DNA of 64,000 nt from a virus (lineage: Duplodnaviria; Caudoviricetes): IMG/VR virus record IMGVR_UViG_3300046786_000293, positions 256,001 through 320,000 of that record; one strand, 5' to 3'. Positions within the stretch are counted from its first letter, which is position 1. Every line of letters begins with the position of its first letter. Below the pieces are notes generated by a model that was not told the origin of the DNA, searched no databases, and saw nothing but the letters and a program-made list of their open reading frames with translations. This document shows positions 4,156-29,255 of the stretch, piece after piece. The position numbers and the translations under genes are program-made.

Positions 4156-4662
4156 TTACCGTGTGAAAGGGTCAATGTTTTTATAAGTCATCCATGTACA
4201 TTTCCTATCCGTACTAGGACCTGCACTACGTGCTTGGAAAAAACTTAAATATTTTTTTAGATCGATTTGGACATCAGTTCGAAATTGTCCTTTGAAATGT
4301 GTAATATGTACTTCGTCTACTAAATCTCGAGTTGACATTAAAATTTCTGGCCCACCGATAATCCAAATAGTTTTCGTTGGATTATTTTCTGCAATAACTT
4401 TTATAGAGGAAGATATATCACCGCGGATAGTACGAACACCATCGTATCCAAATAATGGTCTATTAGTAACTACGTAAGTAGTCCTATTAGGTAATGGCTT
4501 AGGCATCTTGGGATCATCCCAAGTTTTCCTGCCCATTATTACTATATCGCCTTGTGTTTGTTCTTTGAAATACTGTAGATCTTCAGAGTGATGGGGCCAA
4601 GGCAATGAACCTTTAAGCCCCATTCCACCCCAATGATCTACGGCAAATATTGCCTTAATCAT
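4156..4662 (-). CDS. folA: Dihydrofolate reductase
   Basis: GMGLKGSLPWP, DLQYFK, IVIMGRKTW, PLPNR, WIIGG. Confidence 0.95.
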   Translation of the reverse strand: MIKAIFAVDHWGGMGLKGSLPWPHHSEDLQYFKEQTQGDIVIMGRKTWDDPKMPKPLPNRTTYVVTNRPLFGYDGVRTIRGDISSSIKVIAENNPTKTIWIIGGPEILMSTRDLVDEVHITHFKGQFRTDVQIDLKKYLSFFQARSAGPSTDRKCTWMTYKNIDPFTR

Positions 4663-6403: not shown

Positions 6404-6877
6404 TTAAACATTGTCGCCTTCCTTAGTTAATTCGCACACCATTAGAAATTGTTCAAATGCCAACTTAACAGTATCATATTTCATAAGTTTTTCAGCTTCG
6501 GCTTGCATAGCCGCAATACCTGCTTCGGCAACATCGTGAGCACTTTTCCAATGTAAAAATCTTGCTCGTTCGCCAAATACTTTAACAAGTTGTTCCCATG
6601 CTTCTTTTTGCTCGTTGGTAAGAGGAGTCTCGGAATTTTCTTCTCTGCGAATCTCCGAAGCCTCTTGTACAGCCCGAGTCATAGCATCTTCGGCAATACG
6701 TCCAGCGGCAATCAATGCGGCAAAGTTTGGTTCTACGTTATAACGAGTAGATTTGCCACCGGGATACACGCTGATTAAGTGATTGCCTTTGGGTAATGCA
6801 TCTAATAATGCGTAGTCATACTCGTATACCGGTTTGTATCTACGCCCAACTTTTTCATAAAAAATCTTCTTGGTCAT
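6404..6877 (-). CDS. Hypothetical protein
   Basis: 157-aa ORF in the operon. Confidence 0.7.
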   Translation of the reverse strand: MTKKIFYEKVGRRYKPVYEYDYALLDALPKGNHLISVYPGGKSTRYNVEPNFAALIAAGRIAEDAMTRAVQEASEIRREENSETPLTNEQKEAWEQLVKVFGERARFLHWKSAHDVAEAGIAAMQAEAEKLMKYDTVKLAFEQFLMVCELTKEGDNV

Positions 6878-20919: not shown

Positions 20920-21786
20920 TTATTTGCCCCAACCATTGCCCCAAAGGTCAACGTGTAAGCGAGGACTGTAGTAGTATCCTCGACTACATGCCCAGTCTGC
21001 AACTCGCACACGGTTTGCCGCATAAGGAGTGACAACACCACCTTGTGGCATAACGTATACAACACCAGTAAATCCGCCTGCTCTAAATTCTTTTACAGCA
21101 CGCTCTACTTCTGCAAAGTGTTCTTCTGTTTCTACAACAAACTTAAGATAAACGGTGCCTAGATTTTGATAACTGGCCACAATATCAGGACAAATTGCTT
21201 CCTCCCACTTTTCGCCGCTTGCACTTAGTTTGGCACTTACACTGAATGTGACTTCTCTCTTAAAGTCTATACCAGGCAGTTGCCACAGTAATAGATATTC
21301 TGCAAATTTATCTTGCAGACGTTGTGTGCCGTTTGTTTCAAATGTGATATTACGAAGATCCTGCATACCTTCGCGACTTAGCAATTCTTCGTAAGCACGT
21401 TGCCAACCCAGTAGCGGCTCACCGCCTGTAATAACAAGATGTACATCGTTACCGTTGTCTTGCACCCACTTGTGATTGGGTGTTAGTGCAAGCATTTTGT
21501 CTACTAGTTCTTTAGTATCATAATTTGGGCTTAGTTCTTTGAATGCGGGGTGCCAGGATGCATAGCTATCACAGCCGGTGTTGACAAGAGGCAGCTCTTC
21601 AAATGTTTTATAAAGGTGTATGTTCTTTGCCACCTCGTCGGCTTCTTTGCTCTTACTACCAGGAGCGCAGCCAAAGCCTGCACACGTAAAGTTGCATCCA
21701 AACGTTCGAAGGAAAACGCTAGGAACACCAACAAAACGACCTTCGCCCTGTGCAGAGTAGAATAGTTCACTTACTTTAATCTTCAT
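20920..21786 (-). CDS. queE: 7-carboxy-7-deazaguanine synthase QueE (radical SAM)
   Basis: SELFYSAQGEG, FLRTFGCNFTC...CD, LVITGGEP, FETNG, PRLHVDLWG. Confidence 0.92.
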   Translation of the reverse strand: MKIKVSELFYSAQGEGRFVGVPSVFLRTFGCNFTCAGFGCAPGSKSKEADEVAKNIHLYKTFEELPLVNTGCDSYASWHPAFKELSPNYDTKELVDKMLALTPNHKWVQDNGNDVHLVITGGEPLLGWQRAYEELLSREGMQDLRNITFETNGTQRLQDKFAEYLLLWQLPGIDFKREVTFSVSAKLSASGEKWEEAICPDIVASYQNLGTVYLKFVVETEEHFAEVERAVKEFRAGGFTGVVYVMPQGGVVTPYAANRVRVADWACSRGYYYSPRLHVDLWGNGWGK

Positions 21787-22051
21787 ATATTTTTGACCAG
21801 AGTCTTAATTTATCTTTTTTGGCTTGTTTTGCTTGTTCAAGCCTTTCCCATGATAATACATTCTGTTCTACTAGAATGTCAATCATAGCCAATACATCAC
21901 CTATTTCATTTTCTAGCATCGTTGAATGAGTCAACCCTGTTTTATAGTGTTGACTATCAACACCAAACCTGCGACATTTACTAACTTCAACGATAACTTC
22001 AGCACATTCTTCTTGAAGAATGTCTAGTGTTTCTTGGATTTTTGGATTCAT
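21776..22051 (-). CDS. MazG-like NTP pyrophosphohydrolase
   Basis: LQEECAEV...ENEIGDVL (EExxE...E.GD). Confidence 0.8.
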   Translation of the reverse strand: MNPKIQETLDILQEECAEVIVEVSKCRRFGVDSQHYKTGLTHSTMLENEIGDVLAMIDILVEQNVLSWERLEQAKQAKKDKLRLWSKIYED

Positions 22052-22236
22052 GTAGTCTTTTCAATTCTTACCATTTTAAAGCAAACCCAACCATCGGGAG
22101 TCTTAACCATGGTACCACCCAATACTTCGCACTGATTGACTCGATCATCAAAACGAGCAAGCGCAAAGCCTGCGGCAATAATTGTAAGGGCCAAGAGTCC
22201 AAACATAATTTTTTCAAATAAACCTAAATTAGTCAT
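22048..22236 (-). CDS. Small membrane-anchored protein
   Basis: One TM segment followed by C...C. Confidence 0.55.
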   Translation of the reverse strand: MTNLGLFEKIMFGLLALTIIAAGFALARFDDRVNQCEVLGGTMVKTPDGWVCFKMVRIEKTT

Positions 22237-22239
22237 AGC

Positions 22240-22431
22240 TCACCAATGTCGAATAACACCTGCAATGATAAAACAGTTTGTTATAATGTATGATAGCACA
22301 ATGGCAGTACGAATGCAAGCAATACGGTCTGCTTCCGAATCCGTACTGCCTGCTTTTTCTCCAAGGGCTTTCGCCCAAAGTCTCCAAATTTTAGTTGCTA
22401 CTTTGAACAATGTTTTCGTTCTCGTCGACAT
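22240..22431 (-). CDS. Small membrane protein
   Basis: WRLWAKALGEKAG...ADRIA followed by a hydrophobic tail. Confidence 0.65.
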   Translation of the reverse strand: MSTRTKTLFKVATKIWRLWAKALGEKAGSTDSEADRIACIRTAIVLSYIITNCFIIAGVIRHW

Positions 22432-23032
22432 TAACTTTCTTTTGCAAGAAATTTAGCAACACACCATATGCGGGCAGAATAACAATCAGGCTAACAATAA
22501 TTTTGCTAATGCTATTGTTGGTAGCAACAGTAAACCAATTAGCAGCCATAAATTCATTTGCACCTTTGTAGAATGCTGTGAAGAAGAAGGTGTATGTGTC
22601 GATGAACGTGCTTACGATACTACTTAGAGTAGGAGCAATCCACCAGCTATTATACTTCTCTCGAAAATATTGGAATACATAGACATCTAACAAGTTAGAA
22701 ACAAAGTATGCCATACCCGATCCAAGACCAATTCGGAATGCGACGCTATCAGGTGCTCCGCCCAATTTGACTACTGCCATACTAACTAATATGGCAGGAA
22801 TAAATGCTAACGCAATAACTGCACGGCCTGTTTGTTTACCTAGCAATCGAACAGTCAGGTCTGTTAAAACAACAACTAACGGAAAGGTAAATGCCGCTAC
22901 TGCTAGAGGATTTCCAAAAACGTCAATTTTAAATTGAACAACATAGTTACTAATAGCAATAATGATGATATGAGCTAACATCAACTTATACGCTAATGCA
23001 CGGTCTACGCCGGCTAAAATTTTGTCAAACAT
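22391..23032 (-). CDS. yhhQ: YhhQ/VUT family queuosine-precursor (preQ0/preQ1) transporter
   Basis: Multi-TM; ISNYVVQ, FTFPLVVVLTDL, SNLLDVYVF, STFIDTYTFF. Confidence 0.88.
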   Translation of the reverse strand: MFDKILAGVDRALAYKLMLAHIIIIAISNYVVQFKIDVFGNPLAVAAFTFPLVVVLTDLTVRLLGKQTGRAVIALAFIPAILVSMAVVKLGGAPDSVAFRIGLGSGMAYFVSNLLDVYVFQYFREKYNSWWIAPTLSSIVSTFIDTYTFFFTAFYKGANEFMAANWFTVATNNSISKIIVSLIVILPAYGVLLNFLQKKVNVDENENIVQSSN

Positions 23033-23043
23033 ATTTTTACTCC

Positions 23044-23376
23044 TTAGTGATTACGTTTGCCGTCAAACACACATACAAAATACAATGTATGAGAATTTGA
23101 CTTATTATGAACACGATGGAACACACCGTCTTCAATTAGGACAACGTCGCCTCCTTGAACGGCCAAACGCTTGTCATCTAATTCCATTTCGCCAACGCCA
23201 GAAATAAAATAATATACTTCTTCTTGTCCGGCATGGCTATGTCCTCTTGTACTTTGTCCAGGTTTTAAATCTGTTGAACTTAGTACAAGATTCTTTAGTG
23301 TTTTGTTGTCTTTAAGAACATAAGTTTCATTGTCTTTAACAATGTCACCACCTATATCATATATGCTATATTTCAT
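23044..23376 (-). CDS. Cupin-domain protein
   Basis: GHSHAGQEEVYYF...GDVVLIEDGVFHRV. Confidence 0.85.
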   Translation of the reverse strand: MKYSIYDIGGDIVKDNETYVLKDNKTLKNLVLSSTDLKPGQSTRGHSHAGQEEVYYFISGVGEMELDDKRLAVQGGDVVLIEDGVFHRVHNKSNSHTLYFVCVFDGKRNH

Positions 23377-23382
23377 AATAAT

Positions 23383-24036
23383 TTAAAATTCTAAAACAAA
23401 ATGTGAAGTTTTTCTATAAACAGTACGTTTTGCCTTTAAACTCATGTTATCAAATAATTCGTCGTCGATTATTCTACAATGCATTTTTTCTGCGTCAGGC
23501 CATCCGCTTCCAATTGCTATAGGATGCATACCTGGATGATTCGCAATACACATTAGTCCACTAAATTGTTTACAGATATTATCCCACACAGGCTCGAATT
23601 CTTCTTCGAGTATATGTTCAATTGATTCTACCATGAGAACTGTGTCAAATTTTGAAAAATCTGCTACAAAATTTTTAACATTGGTTTCTATGACCTTTGG
23701 CGGAATAAACTCGTCTCCAAAGAACTGTTTACCAGTTCGATCAAACCAATTCTGAATGTTGATTGCTATATCCACCGCAGTAACAGGAATACCTAATTTG
23801 GATAAAACACATGATATTTCTCCTCTGCCAGGCCCTATTTCCAATACATGGTTGGGAGTTCTAGTTTTATAATTATTTAAAAATTGCAACTGATCTTCAA
23901 GTGTATTACACTCGATTAAATCATAAATGCCAAATGCATAACACAAGGCCGGAAACTGATCATTCGACCTTAACATTTTTTTATTCCAATTATCTAAATC
24001 AGAATAAAAATACCCTTCTTGGTATGCAAAACTCAT
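23383..24036 (-). CDS. Class I SAM-dependent methyltransferase
   Basis: VLEIGPGRG, AVDI, ESIEHI; ATGA-coupled to queD. Confidence 0.8.
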   Translation of the reverse strand: MSFAYQEGYFYSDLDNWNKKMLRSNDQFPALCYAFGIYDLIECNTLEDQLQFLNNYKTRTPNHVLEIGPGRGEISCVLSKLGIPVTAVDIAINIQNWFDRTGKQFFGDEFIPPKVIETNVKNFVADFSKFDTVLMVESIEHILEEEFEPVWDNICKQFSGLMCIANHPGMHPIAIGSGWPDAEKMHCRIIDDELFDNMSLKAKRTVYRKTSHFVLEF

Positions 24037-24536
24037 GCAAATAAATCCTCGTTCCATTCACGATGACCTTCACGGAATGCCATATTGCTTTGTGTTTCAC
24101 GCACCTCTACACGATAGCACCATAGTCGTTGTGCTTCTCCTGGCCCCCACAGGTCAGGTATATAAACACCATTGACATACTTGTAAAGCATGTCGGCCAG
24201 GCCTTCGCAACCCAGTCTCGGTAAGACTACAACCTTGGCCATTTTCTTGGCTTCTAGTAGTTTGTATGTTTCCATTTCAGGATCATCTTGTGCCACAATC
24301 AACGTGTGGTCGAACATATCCTCTAATAACTTCTTCAAGTCTTTCAATCCACCGTAGTCAGCGGCCCAGTTGCGTACATCTAGGTCATTAGTACCAAAGT
24401 AAAACTTCATTGAAAAACTGTAGCCATGAATTAAGTTACAGTGACTATCGGCACGCCATTGACGATACGCACAGGGAAATGCGTCGTGATATTCTTTGGT
24501 GCTTGTGTATTTGTAGGTAATTGTTTGATTTGCCAT
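24033..24536 (-). CDS. queD: 6-carboxy-5,6,7,8-tetrahydropterin synthase QueD
   Basis: HCNLIHGYS, DYGGLK, FDHTL, CEGLA, VEVRET. Confidence 0.9.
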   Translation of the reverse strand: MANQTITYKYTSTKEYHDAFPCAYRQWRADSHCNLIHGYSFSMKFYFGTNDLDVRNWAADYGGLKDLKKLLEDMFDHTLIVAQDDPEMETYKLLEAKKMAKVVVLPRLGCEGLADMLYKYVNGVYIPDLWGPGEAQRLWCYRVEVRETQSNMAFREGHREWNEDLFA

Positions 24537-24571
24537 CTCTAGTCTCCTTTATGTTAGGTAGCAAGTTTGAT

Positions 24572-24614
24572 GGTATGCAGAATCTTTATAGAGGGATGAA
24601 TGCCAAGTCCTCTT
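24572..24614 (-). ncRNA. preQ1-I-like riboswitch aptamer candidate in the queD 5' UTR
   Basis: AGAGG-ACUUGGCAUUCAUC-CCUCU-AUAAAGAUUCUGC: 5-bp P1, C immediately before the 3' arm, A-rich tail, loop GCA able to pair with tail UGC; follows TAAATA (24622-24627) and precedes the AAGGAG RBS. Confidence 0.6.
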
Positions 24615-24624
24615 GAGTAAGTAT

Positions 24625-25134
24625 TTATTCCCACCAACGCTCGTAGGGAAAAACAATCCATTCTTTTTTGCTTTTAGTAATCTCTTCGCCACTAAAGTCT
24701 ATGGTAACGTGGGACTTACTGCTAACGTTATCGTATACTACTGCAAATTTTACATTATGATTCCAAACATCTTTCCAACTTGGATCCTTGGGTAAACAAC
24801 TAGATTGCCAATCTTCGATAAGCCAATTAATTGTTTTACCTGTATCATTGATGTCGTCGACAATGAGAATCTTTTTGCGAGCAGTTACCTCAGGCTTGCC
24901 GTATTCGTAGCCAAATGCATCTTCAGCCATCCACAAATTACTTTCGTTAGTTTCGGGCTTGCTGGTTACATGTAGTGCATACATAGGAATATCAAAATAG
25001 TGACTAATCATAACTGCGGGAATAAGACCACCGCGAGTTAGTCCTACAATATAATCGGGGCGCCAATTACTAATAGCAATGCTTCGACAAATTTTAGCGA
25101 CCCGGCTATTATATTCTTTATTAGTAAGATCCAT
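24625..25134 (-). CDS. Type I phosphoribosyltransferase (purine PRTase-like)
   Basis: IVGLTRGGLIPA, ILIVDDINDTGKT (PRPP loop), WIVFPYE. Confidence 0.88.
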   Translation of the reverse strand: MDLTNKEYNSRVAKICRSIAISNWRPDYIVGLTRGGLIPAVMISHYFDIPMYALHVTSKPETNESNLWMAEDAFGYEYGKPEVTARKKILIVDDINDTGKTINWLIEDWQSSCLPKDPSWKDVWNHNVKFAVVYDNVSSKSHVTIDFSGEEITKSKKEWIVFPYERWWE

Positions 25135-25459
25135 GTTGTTCTCGTTCCATTTGTTCTTTAAGATTATGATTAGTGATTATATTACTAAACTTAAGTATAA
25201 ACATACTAGCAATACTAGCATCTTCACCATTGAAATGCAATCTACTGCCGCCGAGGCCATTTTGATGATGATGACACCATTTACCTTTGCCGTATGATAC
25301 GTAAGGTACATTATTTTCTTTGCCCCGGCTATTCCAAAAGTGTTCGACTTTTTTATTGCCGCCAATTTGGTCGTACCATTCAACAACTTCGTCGTTGAGT
25401 TCTTCTATGTCTATCCAAATTGGATAAACTACTCGACACCCTGGGGGTAGTGCTATCAT
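25121..25459 (-). CDS. Hypothetical protein, array-family-like C-terminus
   Basis: VEWYDQIGG...LHFNGEDASIASMFILKF. Confidence 0.65.
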   Translation of the reverse strand: MIALPPGCRVVYPIWIDIEELNDEVVEWYDQIGGNKKVEHFWNSRGKENNVPYVSYGKGKWCHHHQNGLGGSRLHFNGEDASIASMFILKFSNIITNHNLKEQMEREQHGSY

Positions 25460-25905
25460 TTTGCCCTTTCAGACAAATATTGTTCCCACTGTACCCATTG
25501 TCCTTTGCGTAGGAATCCCCATTCGCGTTGTTTTGCTCCGGGCATAAACAATGTCCAACAAGTTACATCAGGATCAAGTTCGATACGATGATAACTGTTT
25601 GCACTACAAATACGAAAGTGTCCGGGGCCACGCCAATGTTGAAATTCGGCAATCTTAACTCCTTGATTGTTAAACACAGGAGTCCATTCCCAATATCCGC
25701 CTTTAAGGATAATAGTTGCATAGGGCCAAGGATGATCGTGCAAATCGTCGGGGTCGGACTTAAGAAATTTGTGTAGAAATATGTTAAATGGAAACCGTGT
25801 TCTGTCTTTGAGAAACACATAATAGCGTTCCAAGTAAGGTTCGTTGTTGACACGGTCCATAACAATACGTTTACGACCTAACTTTTCTAGCAATTTAAGA
25901 AACAT
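25456..25905 (-). CDS. Cupin-fold hypothetical protein
   Basis: LHKF, LHDHPW, GGYWE, YHRIEL, WTLF. Confidence 0.75.
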   Translation of the reverse strand: MFLKLLEKLGRKRIVMDRVNNEPYLERYYVFLKDRTRFPFNIFLHKFLKSDPDDLHDHPWPYATIILKGGYWEWTPVFNNQGVKIAEFQHWRGPGHFRICSANSYHRIELDPDVTCWTLFMPGAKQREWGFLRKGQWVQWEQYLSERAK

Positions 25906-25950
25906 AATAGTCCTTTAAAGTTTTGCACATAGATTTTAGTTGAAATAACT

Positions 25951-27192
25951 TTATAAGTCAATGCTTAAAGTTGGTTTGGTAAAATAGACATTTGTTCTAT
26001 TGCTGTCGTTTACTGTGTAAACAAAACCCCATTTATTACCAATTCGAATCGGAAGTGTGATTTGTTTATTTGGTATTTGTGTATACGCTCTACGAGTCCA
26101 GCGGCCTTGCCCGCTTATTAACATTTGCGGACTAGTCCAAATATCAGGGATACCGTCGCCATTAAAATCTTGAATCATAGGCATGTAATCAATATCTATA
26201 TTTGAATTAAAATCAGTTAAGTTAGTTTGATCTACAAAGTTAAAATTACCTTGATTAATTAAAATTTGTACTCGACCTTCGGCAGTCCATTGATTGTTTC
26301 TTGCTGACGCCCACGGTCTACTAAACACAACAATATCTTGTAGTCCGTCATTGTTCATGTCTGCTACTTTACATCTTACATCGTGACTAATTTCAGTAAG
26401 ACCAGAATTACCAACTTCATAGTGGGGTGGAGTTAATAAATGTTGTGCAACAGGCTTTAAATTTGAATTTAGTTCGAATACAGCAGTATCATTAAATGGC
26501 CATTGTCCGTTGGCAATATTTAAATCGGTAATGACTATCTGTTTGCGTCCGTCGTTTGCAAAATCTCCCACGCATACTCCCATACCATGCATCCAGAACA
26601 AACTATTGGCCCAGGTGTGGTCTTTAAATGTAAAGTTGCCGGAACCGTCGTTGATCCACATTTTGCCTTCTGCATCCACAACGTCTAAATTTCCATCACT
26701 ATTAATATCGGCTACAGTTGCACTATGACTCCATGTATATTCTAATAATTGATGACTATGATATGTGCCTGGACGACTTAAAAATAGATGTGTAACAGTA
26801 AGTTGGTTTGAGATATCTACAAAACCTGGCAAAAATATATCGTCTATTCCGTCATTATTAAAATCTGCCACCAACGGTGTTGCTACACTAACTCTAGGTA
26901 CACTGGGCCCGAGAATATCTGCCGTTACATCAGTGCCGCCACCATTTTCATTTAATTTAAAAATATTAACGGGCACAGTCCCGCCCATTTCAATCTGACT
27001 GCCTGTAACTAATACGTAAGTATTACTGTCATTTTTAAAATGGCCTTGCACTATTGCAACACCCATAAAATAATCTGTTTGAATGCCTTTAATAAATGTG
27101 GAATCAACAGTAGCAGAACTACTAGAACCTCCACCGCCTCCGCCACAAGCAGACAACAACAGGCTAAAAAGAAAGGGTATGACTAGTTTCAT
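25951..27192 (-). CDS. Lipoprotein with FG-GAP/VCBS repeats
   Basis: Lipobox LLSAC then a poly-Gly linker; repeats ADFNNDGIDD, ADINSDGNLD, GDFANDGRKQ, ADMNNDGLQD, QDFNGDGIPD. Confidence 0.85.
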   Translation of the reverse strand: MKLVIPFLFSLLLSACGGGGGGSSSSATVDSTFIKGIQTDYFMGVAIVQGHFKNDSNTYVLVTGSQIEMGGTVPVNIFKLNENGGGTDVTADILGPSVPRVSVATPLVADFNNDGIDDIFLPGFVDISNQLTVTHLFLSRPGTYHSHQLLEYTWSHSATVADINSDGNLDVVDAEGKMWINDGSGNFTFKDHTWANSLFWMHGMGVCVGDFANDGRKQIVITDLNIANGQWPFNDTAVFELNSNLKPVAQHLLTPPHYEVGNSGLTEISHDVRCKVADMNNDGLQDIVVFSRPWASARNNQWTAEGRVQILINQGNFNFVDQTNLTDFNSNIDIDYMPMIQDFNGDGIPDIWTSPQMLISGQGRWTRRAYTQIPNKQITLPIRIGNKWGFVYTVNDSNRTNVYFTKPTLSIDL

Positions 27193-27198
27193 ACCCCA

Positions 27199-27230
27199 AT
27201 TATACAGCCAAAATGAATTTTTGTCTGTTG
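27199..27230 (-). promoter_or_regulatory. Promoter with TATAAT and a CAACAGACAA box at -35
   Basis: TATAAT at 27199-27204, 17-nt spacer, CAGACA at 27222-27227. Confidence 0.5.
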
Positions 27231-27235
27231 TATTT

Positions 27236-27673
27236 TTACGACGGATTTCTGAGTAATTCCATGCTCACAATTTGGGCAATTGCCGCAGATGCATCTTCGG
27301 TGTCGGGAATTACATAATTTTGGTATTGATTTCTGTCGTTGCGGTGATCGTAACTACGCATACTCAAGATGATTCCGCCTCGAGCACTAGTTACTTGGAA
27401 TCGAATTGCGTGGTCATCTTGGTAACCGAGTTCATCTTCTCTAGTAGAGATAGATACTTTAGCTTCATTTTCCGGGAACATGAATGCGTGTAGTTTGCGA
27501 CGTAGCCATTCTTTCATAGTTGATTTTTCTTTGAGTTTAGTTGCTTTAGTTACAGTGGAGTTTCTGTAATTTTTTGGATAGACTTTTCCTGCAGGGATTC
27601 CCTGGCTTCCAATTGCGTTACTTCGAATCCTCGGTACAGAGTATTGCGAGTTCGCGTAGTTTGAGTTCGGCAT
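27236..27673 (-). CDS. Hypothetical protein (start uncertain)
   Basis: Open frame ending IAQIVSMELLRNPS. Confidence 0.6.
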   Translation of the reverse strand: MPNSNYANSQYSVPRIRSNAIGSQGIPAGKVYPKNYRNSTVTKATKLKEKSTMKEWLRRKLHAFMFPENEAKVSISTREDELGYQDDHAIRFQVTSARGGIILSMRSYDHRNDRNQYQNYVIPDTEDASAAIAQIVSMELLRNPS

Positions 27674-27983
27674 CTTTAAGACTTTCGATTGCATCTGCCA
27701 CAGCAGGATGTTTCTTTGCTAATTCTTGATATTCAAGTTGACGAGCACGTTCTTCTTTGGCCCAGTCTATTGCTTGTTGAGCATCCGGAGTCAGCTCTAC
27801 AGTTGTATAGTTTGTGGGCATAGTAATCCACGAATTGCCATCGTAGACTTCTATGTTCTGTGTGCTTGGACTATATCGCATGTTGCCTATACCGGTGGCA
27901 CCACTATAAGCATTTAAATACATTGAGCTAGAGCTACCGTTAATAACATTAACGTGCTTGCCGCCCATTATACCTTTAATCAT
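27618..27983 (-). CDS. Hypothetical protein
   Basis: 121 aa; GNMRY...EVYDGNSW. Confidence 0.7.
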   Translation of the reverse strand: MIKGIMGGKHVNVINGSSSSMYLNAYSGATGIGNMRYSPSTQNIEVYDGNSWITMPTNYTTVELTPDAQQAIDWAKEERARQLEYQELAKKHPAVADAIESLKDAELKLRELAILCTEDSK

Positions 27984-28188
27984 CTAGTTCCATCTCGCTG
28001 GCTTCGCGAACTAGAGCAACTAGCTCGTCTATCGAGCCGACCATAATTTTAGCAGTTTTGTAGTCGCCTTTTTTGTTCCGACCACCAACTTCAAACATAA
28101 ATCCATTGTCGTAACGATTGATGGTGAAAGATTCGTTAACCTTGGTCAGTTTGTCGCTGACCTTGGTTACAGGTTTAGCAGTTGCCAT
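27976..28188 (-). CDS. Small hypothetical protein
   Basis: MATAKP...ESFTINRYDNGFMFEVGG. Confidence 0.7.
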   Translation of the reverse strand: MATAKPVTKVSDKLTKVNESFTINRYDNGFMFEVGGRNKKGDYKTAKIMVGSIDELVALVREASEMELDD

Positions 28189-28222
28189 AATTGATTTTTC
28201 CAAGTTGGTTGATTGATTTAAT

Positions 28223-28504
28223 TTACTGTGGATCGCGATCTTTGTTAGCAGCTAATTTAGCATTCACTTCATCGTGAATCTCAGACATGCGAGGTGTACC
28301 CAAAGCGTTTTGCACCCACTGTATCATAGTATCATTAGTAAATGCACTAGCAGGTTGGCCTTGTGCTTCTGCTGGTAAATCAGTAAGTTCTCCTAGCACT
28401 TCTTGCATATAAGCGCCGTCTCTAACAAAATAACCCCAACGAATGCGGTTTAAATTGCCTTGTTCGTTGTTGAATGTTTCCATAATGTGCCAATGGTAAT
28501 CCAT
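28223..28504 (-). CDS. Hypothetical protein, probably late-expressed
   Basis: 93 aa with an AGGAG RBS and TAAATA at 28524-28529. Confidence 0.7.
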   Translation of the reverse strand: MDYHWHIMETFNNEQGNLNRIRWGYFVRDGAYMQEVLGELTDLPAEAQGQPASAFTNDTMIQWVQNALGTPRMSEIHDEVNAKLAANKDRDPQ

Positions 28505-28526
28505 AGATATCTCCTAATATTAGTAT

Positions 28527-29255
28527 TTATCGTGGTGCAAATTCTTGTTGGAGCTTGATATTGTCAAAGAATTCTTTCTTTGTGCCTGCATCATCTTTAA
28601 AAGCACCTCTTAGAACAGTGGTTTGCGTGAGACTAGAGTGCGCCATAATGCCGCGATTTTCACAGCACCCGTGCGTGGCTTGGATGTAGACCGCAACATC
28701 CTTGGAACCAGTAGCAAACTCAATCTCTCTTGCAATGTCCATGCACAACTCTTCTTGTAGTGTGCCTCGACGAGCGCACCATTGAGCGATGCGACTATAC
28801 TTCGATAACCCAATAAGTTTAGGTCCAGCAATAATACCAATATACGCAACACCCGAAACAGGTTGGTGATGATGGCTACACATACTCTTGAGTTCGCTAC
28901 GAACAACAAGCATTCCGTCATACTTACCTTCACTATCATTAGGGAACGCAGTAGCATTGGGACTTTGTTCATATCTACCTGCCATAATCTCATTGAAATA
29001 CATTTTAGCAAGTCTACGTGCTGTACCTTGACTATTAGGATCAGTCTCTCGATCAATTAGTAGTCGATCAAGCACTAATTCAAATGCTTCTGTTGCTTCG
29101 TCGATAAGTTGGTCCATATGAAACTCATCAACATAATCACTGATGTTGTCTCCAGCCCAGAAACGTTTACCTTCTCGTTTCATTTTAAAACGAAGTACAT
29201 CTGCCAGGTACGCTTCTTCGTAACCACCTGTGTCTAATTCCTTACCGATATCCAT
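28527..29255 (-). CDS. folE: GTP cyclohydrolase I
   Basis: TARRLAKM, SMCSHHHQP, GLSKY, LQE, HGCCENRG, TQTT...G.F. Confidence 0.95.
   Translation of the reverse strand: MDIGKELDTGGYEEAYLADVLRFKMKREGKRFWAGDNISDYVDEFHMDQLIDEATEAFELVLDRLLIDRETDPNSQGTARRLAKMYFNEIMAGRYEQSPNATAFPNDSEGKYDGMLVVRSELKSMCSHHHQPVSGVAYIGIIAGPKLIGLSKYSRIAQWCARRGTLQEELCMDIAREIEFATGSKDVAVYIQATHGCCENRGIMAHSSLTQTTVLRGAFKDDAGTKKEFFDNIKLQQEFAPR

Follow-up and report, generated by a model that had tools for sequence, protein, structure and literature searches.

A conserved pseudoknot leader before phage QueD-like operons: a candidate translation-activating riboswitch on a preQ1-I-like scaffold

The preQ1 riboswitches are the described systems closest to the element reported here. 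As reviewed, all three of their classes turn genes off, and the features of class I are known down to the role of its specificity cytosine (PMC11625349). Class I (RF00522; types I-III, e.g. B. subtilis queC, T. tengcongensis and E. coli) is a small H-type pseudoknot with a 5-bp P1 helix, and it acts through a Shine-Dalgarno (SD) sequence within or next to the pseudoknot helix P2, or through a terminator that forms on binding. We analysed a leader of this layout in a 64,000-nt stretch of DNA (the window: positions 256,001 to 320,000 of the IMG/VR virus record IMGVR_UViG_3300046786_000293, Caudoviricetes). The source record is a jumbo phage of 338,510 bp, estimated to be 97% complete, and the long open reading frames (ORFs) of the window lie on the minus strand throughout. 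On that strand, the 88-nt intergenic leader separates a phosphoribosyltransferase (PRTase) gene (24625-25134) from a PTPS/QueD-like gene (24033-24536). A first reading of the letters alone (hereafter the original prediction) had proposed a preQ1-I-like riboswitch giving negative feedback on queD. The analysis below confirms that the leader is a genuine conserved, structured RNA with an H-type pseudoknot, and we put at about 60% the probability that it is a ligand-activated aptamer of preQ1-I layout, acting as a translational ON switch at the head of the phage PTPS/QueD-like operon.

The leader and its surroundings are composed as follows, in the order of transcription:

24628-24622, minus strand: promoter-like ATAAATA, ending 8 nt before P1 and overlapping the PRTase stop codon
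24613-24609, minus strand: P1 5' strand AGAGG, all five pairs standard in 60/60 sequences
24608-24605, minus strand: L1, ACUU (column counts, 60 aptamers)
24604-24600, minus strand: P2 5' strand GGCAU, within the P1 loop; its partner is the 4-5 nt after the invariant CUGC
24599-24595, minus strand: L2, UCAUC, whose final C is C24595
24594-24590, minus strand: P1 3' strand CCUCU (alignment pairing)
24589-24577, minus strand: L3, AUAAAGAUUCUGC, 13 nt (column counts)
24576-24572, minus strand: P2 3' strand AUACC (comparative alignment)
24575-24569, minus strand: predicted anti-start strand UACCAUC, sharing 4/5 of the P2 3' bases
24549-24544, minus strand: SD sequence AAGGAG, kept in the platform class of the window
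24537-24531, minus strand: GAUGGCA, the start codon (24536-24534) plus flanks, predicted partner of the anti-start strand (helix and folding model)
24536-24033, minus strand: PTPS/QueD-like gene, 167 aa (Pfam and phrog matches)

The leader parts and their order, the 14-nt P1 loop (ACUUGGCAUUCAUC, 24608-24595, minus strand) and the A at the first position of L1 agree with what had been read originally. That reading had skipped the 27 nt (AUACCAUCAAACUUGCUACCUAACAUA, 24576-24550) that separate UGC from AAGGAG and that include the true P2 3' strand AUACC. In this same region, between P2 and the SD, CAAACUUGCUAC is highly conserved in the platform class of the window.

The structure is established by comparison between phages. 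The QueD-like protein has more than 594 IMG/VR relatives, and among the 80 loci taken for comparison nearly all carry the same leader. Alignment A1, which holds 60 distinct aptamers, was gathered by protein homology and is hence not biased by any RNA pattern. P1 is paired in 100% of its cells and 3/5 of the pairs covary: the top two G-C pairs are invariant (60/60), and the variable ones exchange A-U for U-A, G-C for C-G, and C-G for A-U or U-A, giving the forms AGAGG/CCUCU, AGCGG/CCGCU, AGUGG/CCACU, UGCGG/CCGCA and ACCGG/CCGGU. The pseudoknot helix P2 (GGCAU:AUACC in the window, with AUGCC or AUGUC as 3' strand in relatives) is paired in 89.6% of cells and again 3/5 pairs covary, with GGCA:UGCC, GGCG:CGCC, GGCU:AGCC, GACA:UGUC, GACGU:AUGUC, GACGC:GUGUC and GGCUU:AAGCC among the pair types. 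The observed covariation was matched in 0/500 shuffles, and slid controls were only 37-49% paired. By column counts over the 60 aptamers, at least 13 unpaired positions are invariant as well. In L1, the first base varies (C 23, U 23, A 14, with A in the window), and the second and third are C and U, each in 59/60. In L2 (consensus U-C-A-U-C), the U, the C and the final C are each present in 60/60, and the base before the final C is U in 50 sequences, C in 6 and A in 4. L3 follows the consensus W-U-A-M-A-A-A-Y-U-C-U-G-C, with three invariant A residues and a UCUGC 3' end in which U-C and G-C are invariant.

This P2 is not the one that had been suggested at first. Neither of the two pairings then considered is backed by the comparison: GCA:UGC draws on a UGC that is invariant and cannot covary, and UGGCA:UGCUA reaches 5 bp in just 6/32 leaders (those of the window's platform class plus three unclassified), while the other platform types do not contain its target. 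The proposal that P1 and P2 should covary among related queD leaders is thus borne out for P1 and for GGCAU:AUACC, and not for the earlier pairings. Likewise, the identity of the window's P1 with that of B. subtilis turns out to be coincidental, since 50/60 relatives have AGCGG/CCGCU; the B. subtilis 34-mer aptamer used for that comparison was itself quoted correctly, as it is printed verbatim in PMC10639078 and PMC8494917.

Could the hairpin have arisen by chance, or serve as a terminator for the PRTase gene that precedes it? Taken alone, 5 bp closing a 14-nt loop make a weak stem, and the window leader does not stand out in folding energy (z = 0.31, from single-sequence folding, which is uninformative here). 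A scan for AGAGG-N8-18-CCCTCTATAAA gives a single match in the window and none in 100 shuffles, a test that is partly circular because the pattern was derived from the site itself. The evidence against chance therefore lies in the conservation and covariation across 60 distinct homologous leaders: the element covaries and is kept whatever the upstream gene, and a terminator search found no terminator-like site at the leader, which makes this explanation vanishingly improbable. In relatives, strong hairpins with a GC stem, AAAGGGCUCC...GGAGCCCUUU, followed by a U-rich run do resemble terminators a few kb downstream of the PTPS operon (L016:3412, L026:3751, L040:4096, L063:6053 and L069:6040).

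We compared the leader with the preQ1 families. With class I it shares the small H-type pseudoknot and the 5-bp P1, the invariant G-C pair that closes P1 as the pocket floor (60/60 in the leader), an L2 of ~5 nt whose last base, an invariant C, abuts the P1 3' strand, and an L3 that begins A-rich (UAxAAA). The base before that C is U in type I and A in types II and III, and the leader, mostly U, is type I-like in this respect. Both are also associated with queuosine-precursor genes (QueD, QueE, YhhQ). These likenesses would speak for a divergent but ordinary class I preQ1 riboswitch, in which preQ1 or preQ0 turns queD off as negative feedback: the H-type layout, the G-C-closed P1, the invariant C, the A-rich L3 start and an operon holding QueD-like and QueE-like enzymes with a YhhQ queuosine-precursor transporter all count in its favour. 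Several differences speak against it. The first L1 base of class I is a conserved uridine (U6, which reads the N9-H edge of the ligand), whereas in the phage leader this position varies and C and U follow it. The L3 of class I (~6-9 nt) runs straight into P2, whereas the phage L3, at 13 nt, is ~5 nt longer and carries the invariant UCUGC. The phage P2 consists of 4-5 (up to 7) Watson-Crick pairs and excludes the SD, which in the window lies at least 23 nt downstream of P2; class I platforms act OFF, through an SD by P2 or a terminator, whereas the P2 3' strand of the phage leader would serve as an anti-SD or anti-start strand, which predicts ON.

Family searches point the same way. Using Rfam 15 (4227 models; gathering cut-off of PreQ1, RF00522, 39 bits), no family reached its gathering score, whether in the window or across 20 loci from relatives. 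The Infernal search that the original prediction had called for gave no PreQ1 match at E up to 10, either on window positions 24480-24700 or on the leader of locus L001, and across the whole phage genome the best RF00522 score was 14 bits against the 39-bit cut-off, all hits lying elsewhere, while control genomes responded. The preQ1-II and preQ1-III models (RF01054, RF02680) did not match the window, the 20 relatives or the L001 leader. These classes are also pseudoknotted aptamers for a 7-deazaguanine, and in class III the SD is distant from the pocket; they differ in being HLout pseudoknots of ~80-100 nt that embed a hairpin, and in how the pocket is built. Weak matches to DnaX, JPX, bxd and cyano_het_sRNA were rejected as chance. 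The DnaX frameshift-element match (13.3 bits, E 1.1) covers GCAAAAAAG at window positions 24623-24688, minus strand, near the 3' end of the PRTase gene, and is probably fortuitous. The call of a preQ1-I-like fold thus stands as to layout, P1, invariant C, A-rich tail and pseudoknot, and falls as to the family model: by the tests applied, the leader appears preQ1-I-like in architecture without being a member of the class, and an ordinary class I switch is quite unlikely.

What the leader would do is suggested by the dual complementarity of its P2 3' strand, which matches both the P1 loop and the SD/start region. Among 142 distinct full leaders, at least four platform designs, differing in sequence, are joined to one aptamer. 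In every design, the bases immediately after CUGC, comprising the P2 3' strand and 2-4 more, have a 6-8 bp complement in the SD/start region:

CCUAUG, pairing with CAUAGG of the SD
UGYC(A/G)UC, pairing with GAUGGCA and covering the start codon; this is the design of the window, whose strand is UACCAUC
(U)GYCAUUG, pairing with CAAUGGC(A)
UGUCUU, pairing with GAGAC(A/G)
A(A/G)GUCAUC, pairing with GAUGACUU

In loci L182 and L195, GACUU is found twice, once in the aptamer loop and once in the start region, and both copies face a shared tail AAGUC or AGGUC. The anti-start helix of the window type has 7 pairs and is paired in nearly every cell of 32 leaders. In ViennaRNA calculations that leave out the pseudoknot, pairing between the P2 3' strand and the initiation region has a probability of 0.54-0.88. 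Holding the P2 strands changes the unpaired probability of the window AUG from 0.00 to 0.55, and the lower of the SD and AUG accessibilities rises from 0.04 to 0.31 in the class of the window and from 0.07 to 0.52 in the CAUUG class. Altogether, accessibility increases with the pseudoknot imposed in 110/142 leaders.

In the mechanism we propose, a ~50-nt H-type pseudoknot aptamer at the 5' end of the mRNA (P1 of 5 bp, L1, P2 5' strand, L2 with its invariant C, P1 3' strand, 13-nt L3, P2 3' strand) would control the phage PTPS/QueD-like operon. The ligand pocket would probably lie between P1 and P2, where the invariant C could pair with the guanine-like face of a ligand. When the ligand is absent, the P2 3' strand and the next bases would pair with the initiation region, and in the window UACCAUC:GAUGGCA would mask the AUG. 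When it is bound, P2 would form, the anti-start strand would be occupied and the ribosome site released, making a translational ON switch. Because ligands stabilise aptamer folds, this wiring predicts that translation is activated by the ligand, and both complementarity and ViennaRNA folding point away from the negative feedback that had been envisaged. Similar uptake of a strand to unmask the SD or the start codon is found in riboswitches that turn genes on by anti-sequestration, such as the add adenine switch and the small H-type guanidine-III switch; these are also small and devoid of a terminator, but their folds and ligands are unrelated, and the ON direction of the phage leader is predicted from complementarity alone.

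Several observations weigh against this interpretation. The window copy itself departs from near-invariant positions, with a G in the L3 A-tract where 54/60 sequences have A, and an A in the P2 3' strand where 58/60 have G, which leaves a C.A mismatch in the middle of P2; with these two departures and the P2 mismatch, it may be a weakened copy. An A.C mismatch in the anti-start helix is likewise found in the window only, among the 32 leaders. Within each platform class, the anti-SD and anti-start helices are near-invariant and show little formal covariation, their support coming from the comparison between classes. P2 overlaps the sequestering hairpin of the commonest platform by just 1-2 bases, and there the computed accessibility moves only from 0.20 to 0.29. 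For that platform, RNAalifold (alignment A3) returns YUCU:GGAG, a marginal 4-bp pairing at -0.27 kcal/mol. An ON switch before a biosynthetic gene would be unusual if the ligand were the product of the pathway, and direct ligand binding by the leader RNA is at this stage a candidate property.

As to the RNAalifold pairing itself, the YUCU of the invariant L3 element and the GGAG of the SD could form a second anti-SD contact or match by chance. Relatives of the window's platform class have an AUG within the P2 3' strand that starts an ORF of 7-11 codons, whereas the window has AUA and no such ORF. A short upstream ORF seen in the platform class of the window (AUG UCA UCA AAC UUG CUA CCU UAA) was rejected, as it is not conserved, has no SD and does not occur in the window.

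Two further explanations dispense with a small molecule. In the first, the leader is a translational operator bound by a phage or host protein, for example PTPS itself or a RegA-like repressor, after the manner of the T4 gene 32 leader, an autogenous operator in which a phage mRNA likewise begins with a pseudoknot near the ribosome site. Conserved unpaired bases and a pseudoknot beside the ribosome site would suit such an operator too, as would the hairpin of the commonest platform, which is 98.8% paired and conserved in sequence with no covariation. However, the gene 32 leader binds its own protein product, whereas the phage leader precedes divergent enzymes: the element is kept before PTPS subtypes that are just 32-41% identical, it is attached to several unrelated platforms, its layout and pocket-position residues mirror a metabolite aptamer, and none of the neighbouring genes shows an evident RNA-binding domain. 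We regard an operator as unlikely. In the second, the structure works independently of any ligand, for instance by sensing temperature as an RNA thermometer, by governing stability or processing, or by attenuating translation to a fixed degree. Pairing of the start region could indeed respond to temperature or ribosome load by itself, and the unremarkable folding energy of the window leader would be in keeping with this; but at least 13 invariant unpaired bases and a covarying pseudoknot exceed the needs of a thermometer, and the association with a single enzyme family is strict. Such a role appears very unlikely. Covarying helices, invariant junction bases, variable platforms and a position in the 5' untranslated regions of related genes are what one would expect of riboswitches in general, and a new phage-specific riboswitch candidate, built on a preQ1-I-like scaffold and activating translation, is the most likely interpretation. 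That a ligand binds, that it turns translation on and what kind of molecule it is are nevertheless all predictions from sequence.

The distribution of the element was examined at several scales. Covariance model R1 finds exactly one copy in the phage's own genome (53 bits) and one copy in each of five other jumbo-phage genomes (303-365 kb). A pattern scan blind to genes returned at least 120 viral loci; among the 80 listed, the first downstream ORF encodes a PTPS-family protein in 73/75 cases (ORFs of at least 30 aa). The PTPS proteins linked to the aptamer fall into four subtypes, with 32-41% identity between subtypes. In two loci the aptamer stands directly before a gene of another kind, a cupin of 113 aa (L131, motif at 6748-6830) and a SAM-methyltransferase-like protein of 243 aa (L140, motif at 4353-4440), two families that also occur in the operon of the window. 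In L005 (2490-3500), a single leader is followed by a tandem pair of PTPS genes; the aptamer precedes a second PTPS paralogue (N-terminus MAKITATRYHDFSTGHRV) and the window-type PTPS follows ~500 nt downstream.

A pattern scan of prokaryotes, taking one genome per species (185,579 species), gave 7 stretches with a single true copy (L093, on an 8-kb contig of a metagenome-assembled genome, MAG). The Magnetococcales and Lachnospiraceae pattern matches scored 18-20 bits, lacked a proper loop and were rejected; a repeated element of Magnetococcales MAGs (L091, L092, L094 and L097), which contains GGCAUAGGUCUGCUCAUCCCUCUUUAAAAAAUCUGCG, is an unrelated pattern match without the aptamer loop. Blastn of 3.5 kb plus two leaders against 50,697 GenBank phage records gave no real match, and the literature searched contains no description of this element. 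It is, with hundreds of representatives, widespread in uncultured phages and nearly absent from cellular genomes.

The genes around the leader were then assigned. The protein immediately downstream is PTPS/QueD-like, as it had been called (Pfam PF01242, 1.5e-14; phrog_2389, 3e-36), and the operon runs from this QueD-like PTPS through a SAM methyltransferase, a cupin, a YhhQ queuosine-precursor transporter (TIGR00697, 106 bits, above cut-off) and a MazG-like pyrophosphohydrolase to a QueE-like radical-SAM enzyme (phrog_2076, 9e-52). Upstream lie the purine-type PRTase and a CDO-like cupin, with FolE ~4 kb off. The same set, comprising FolE, QueD-like, QueE-like, YhhQ, PRTase, MazG-like, methyltransferase and cupin genes, is seen in window 20920-29255 and in the five related genomes. 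In these six genomes, TGT/DpdA was not found, and QueC gave only partial, weak domain matches, none of them full-length. It is plausible that the genes form a 7-deazapurine pathway in which the usual DNA-transglycosylase route is not evident. With no TGT/DpdA and no full QueC, the gene content suggests a nucleotide-pool 7-deazapurine route, or some other product, rather than DNA transglycosylation, and it does not sustain the original idea of a DNA-modification pathway.

The aptamer is probably located at the extreme 5' end of its mRNA. The TAAATA of the window (24627-24622, read on the minus strand) overlaps the TAA stop codon of the upstream PRTase gene. TAAATA or TAAGTA ends 3-14 nt before P1 in 92/138 distinct flanks versus 12/138 in a control interval further upstream, and a TATAAT-like hexamer occupies the same place in another 18/138. 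The motif is a putative promoter and resembles the T4-type late promoter, TATAAATA. A relative's leader is carried by a freshwater metatranscriptome contig, which is weak evidence that the leader is transcribed, as these are contig data in which DNA carry-over is possible. In the commonest platform, the hairpin loop (L001:2462-2500 and most of the class in alignment A3) reads TGCTATAAT or TGCTAAAAT, which is extended -10-like, and one can conceive of transcription starting there, from an internal promoter, and bypassing the aptamer.

The ligand can be discussed from the pocket and from the wiring. The invariant C points to a ligand with a guanine-like face, and the ON logic suits an end product less well than a substrate or a signal. 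A 7-deazapurine base or nucleotide is the leading candidate, at a little under even odds. A pterin intermediate, for example dihydroneopterin triphosphate, is a good deal less probable, and the same holds for there being no small-molecule ligand at all; another purine is a slimmer chance still. The earlier suggestion that such an aptamer might be retuned holds good. In its most ambitious form, which we advance tentatively and would sooner bet against, the element could be the first virus-only riboswitch class, an ON switch on the preQ1-I scaffold retuned by the variable L1 base and UCUGC, which would sense a ligand other than preQ1 (such as a 7-deazapurine nucleotide or the pterin on which QueD acts) and activate a 7-deazapurine pathway in jumbo phages of fresh water that lack a DNA transglycosylase of the DpdA type.

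Only a small number of riboswitch classes exist, most of them by far defined in bacteria. The element described here would either broaden the preQ1 family or constitute an orphan class of its own, and its short aptamer suits direct biochemical and structural study. It also flags an unusual phage 7-deazapurine pathway, with FolE, QueD, QueE, YhhQ, PRTase and MazG and without DpdA or QueC. If the proposed wiring is true, these phages would provide a natural case of a preQ1 scaffold wired to activate.

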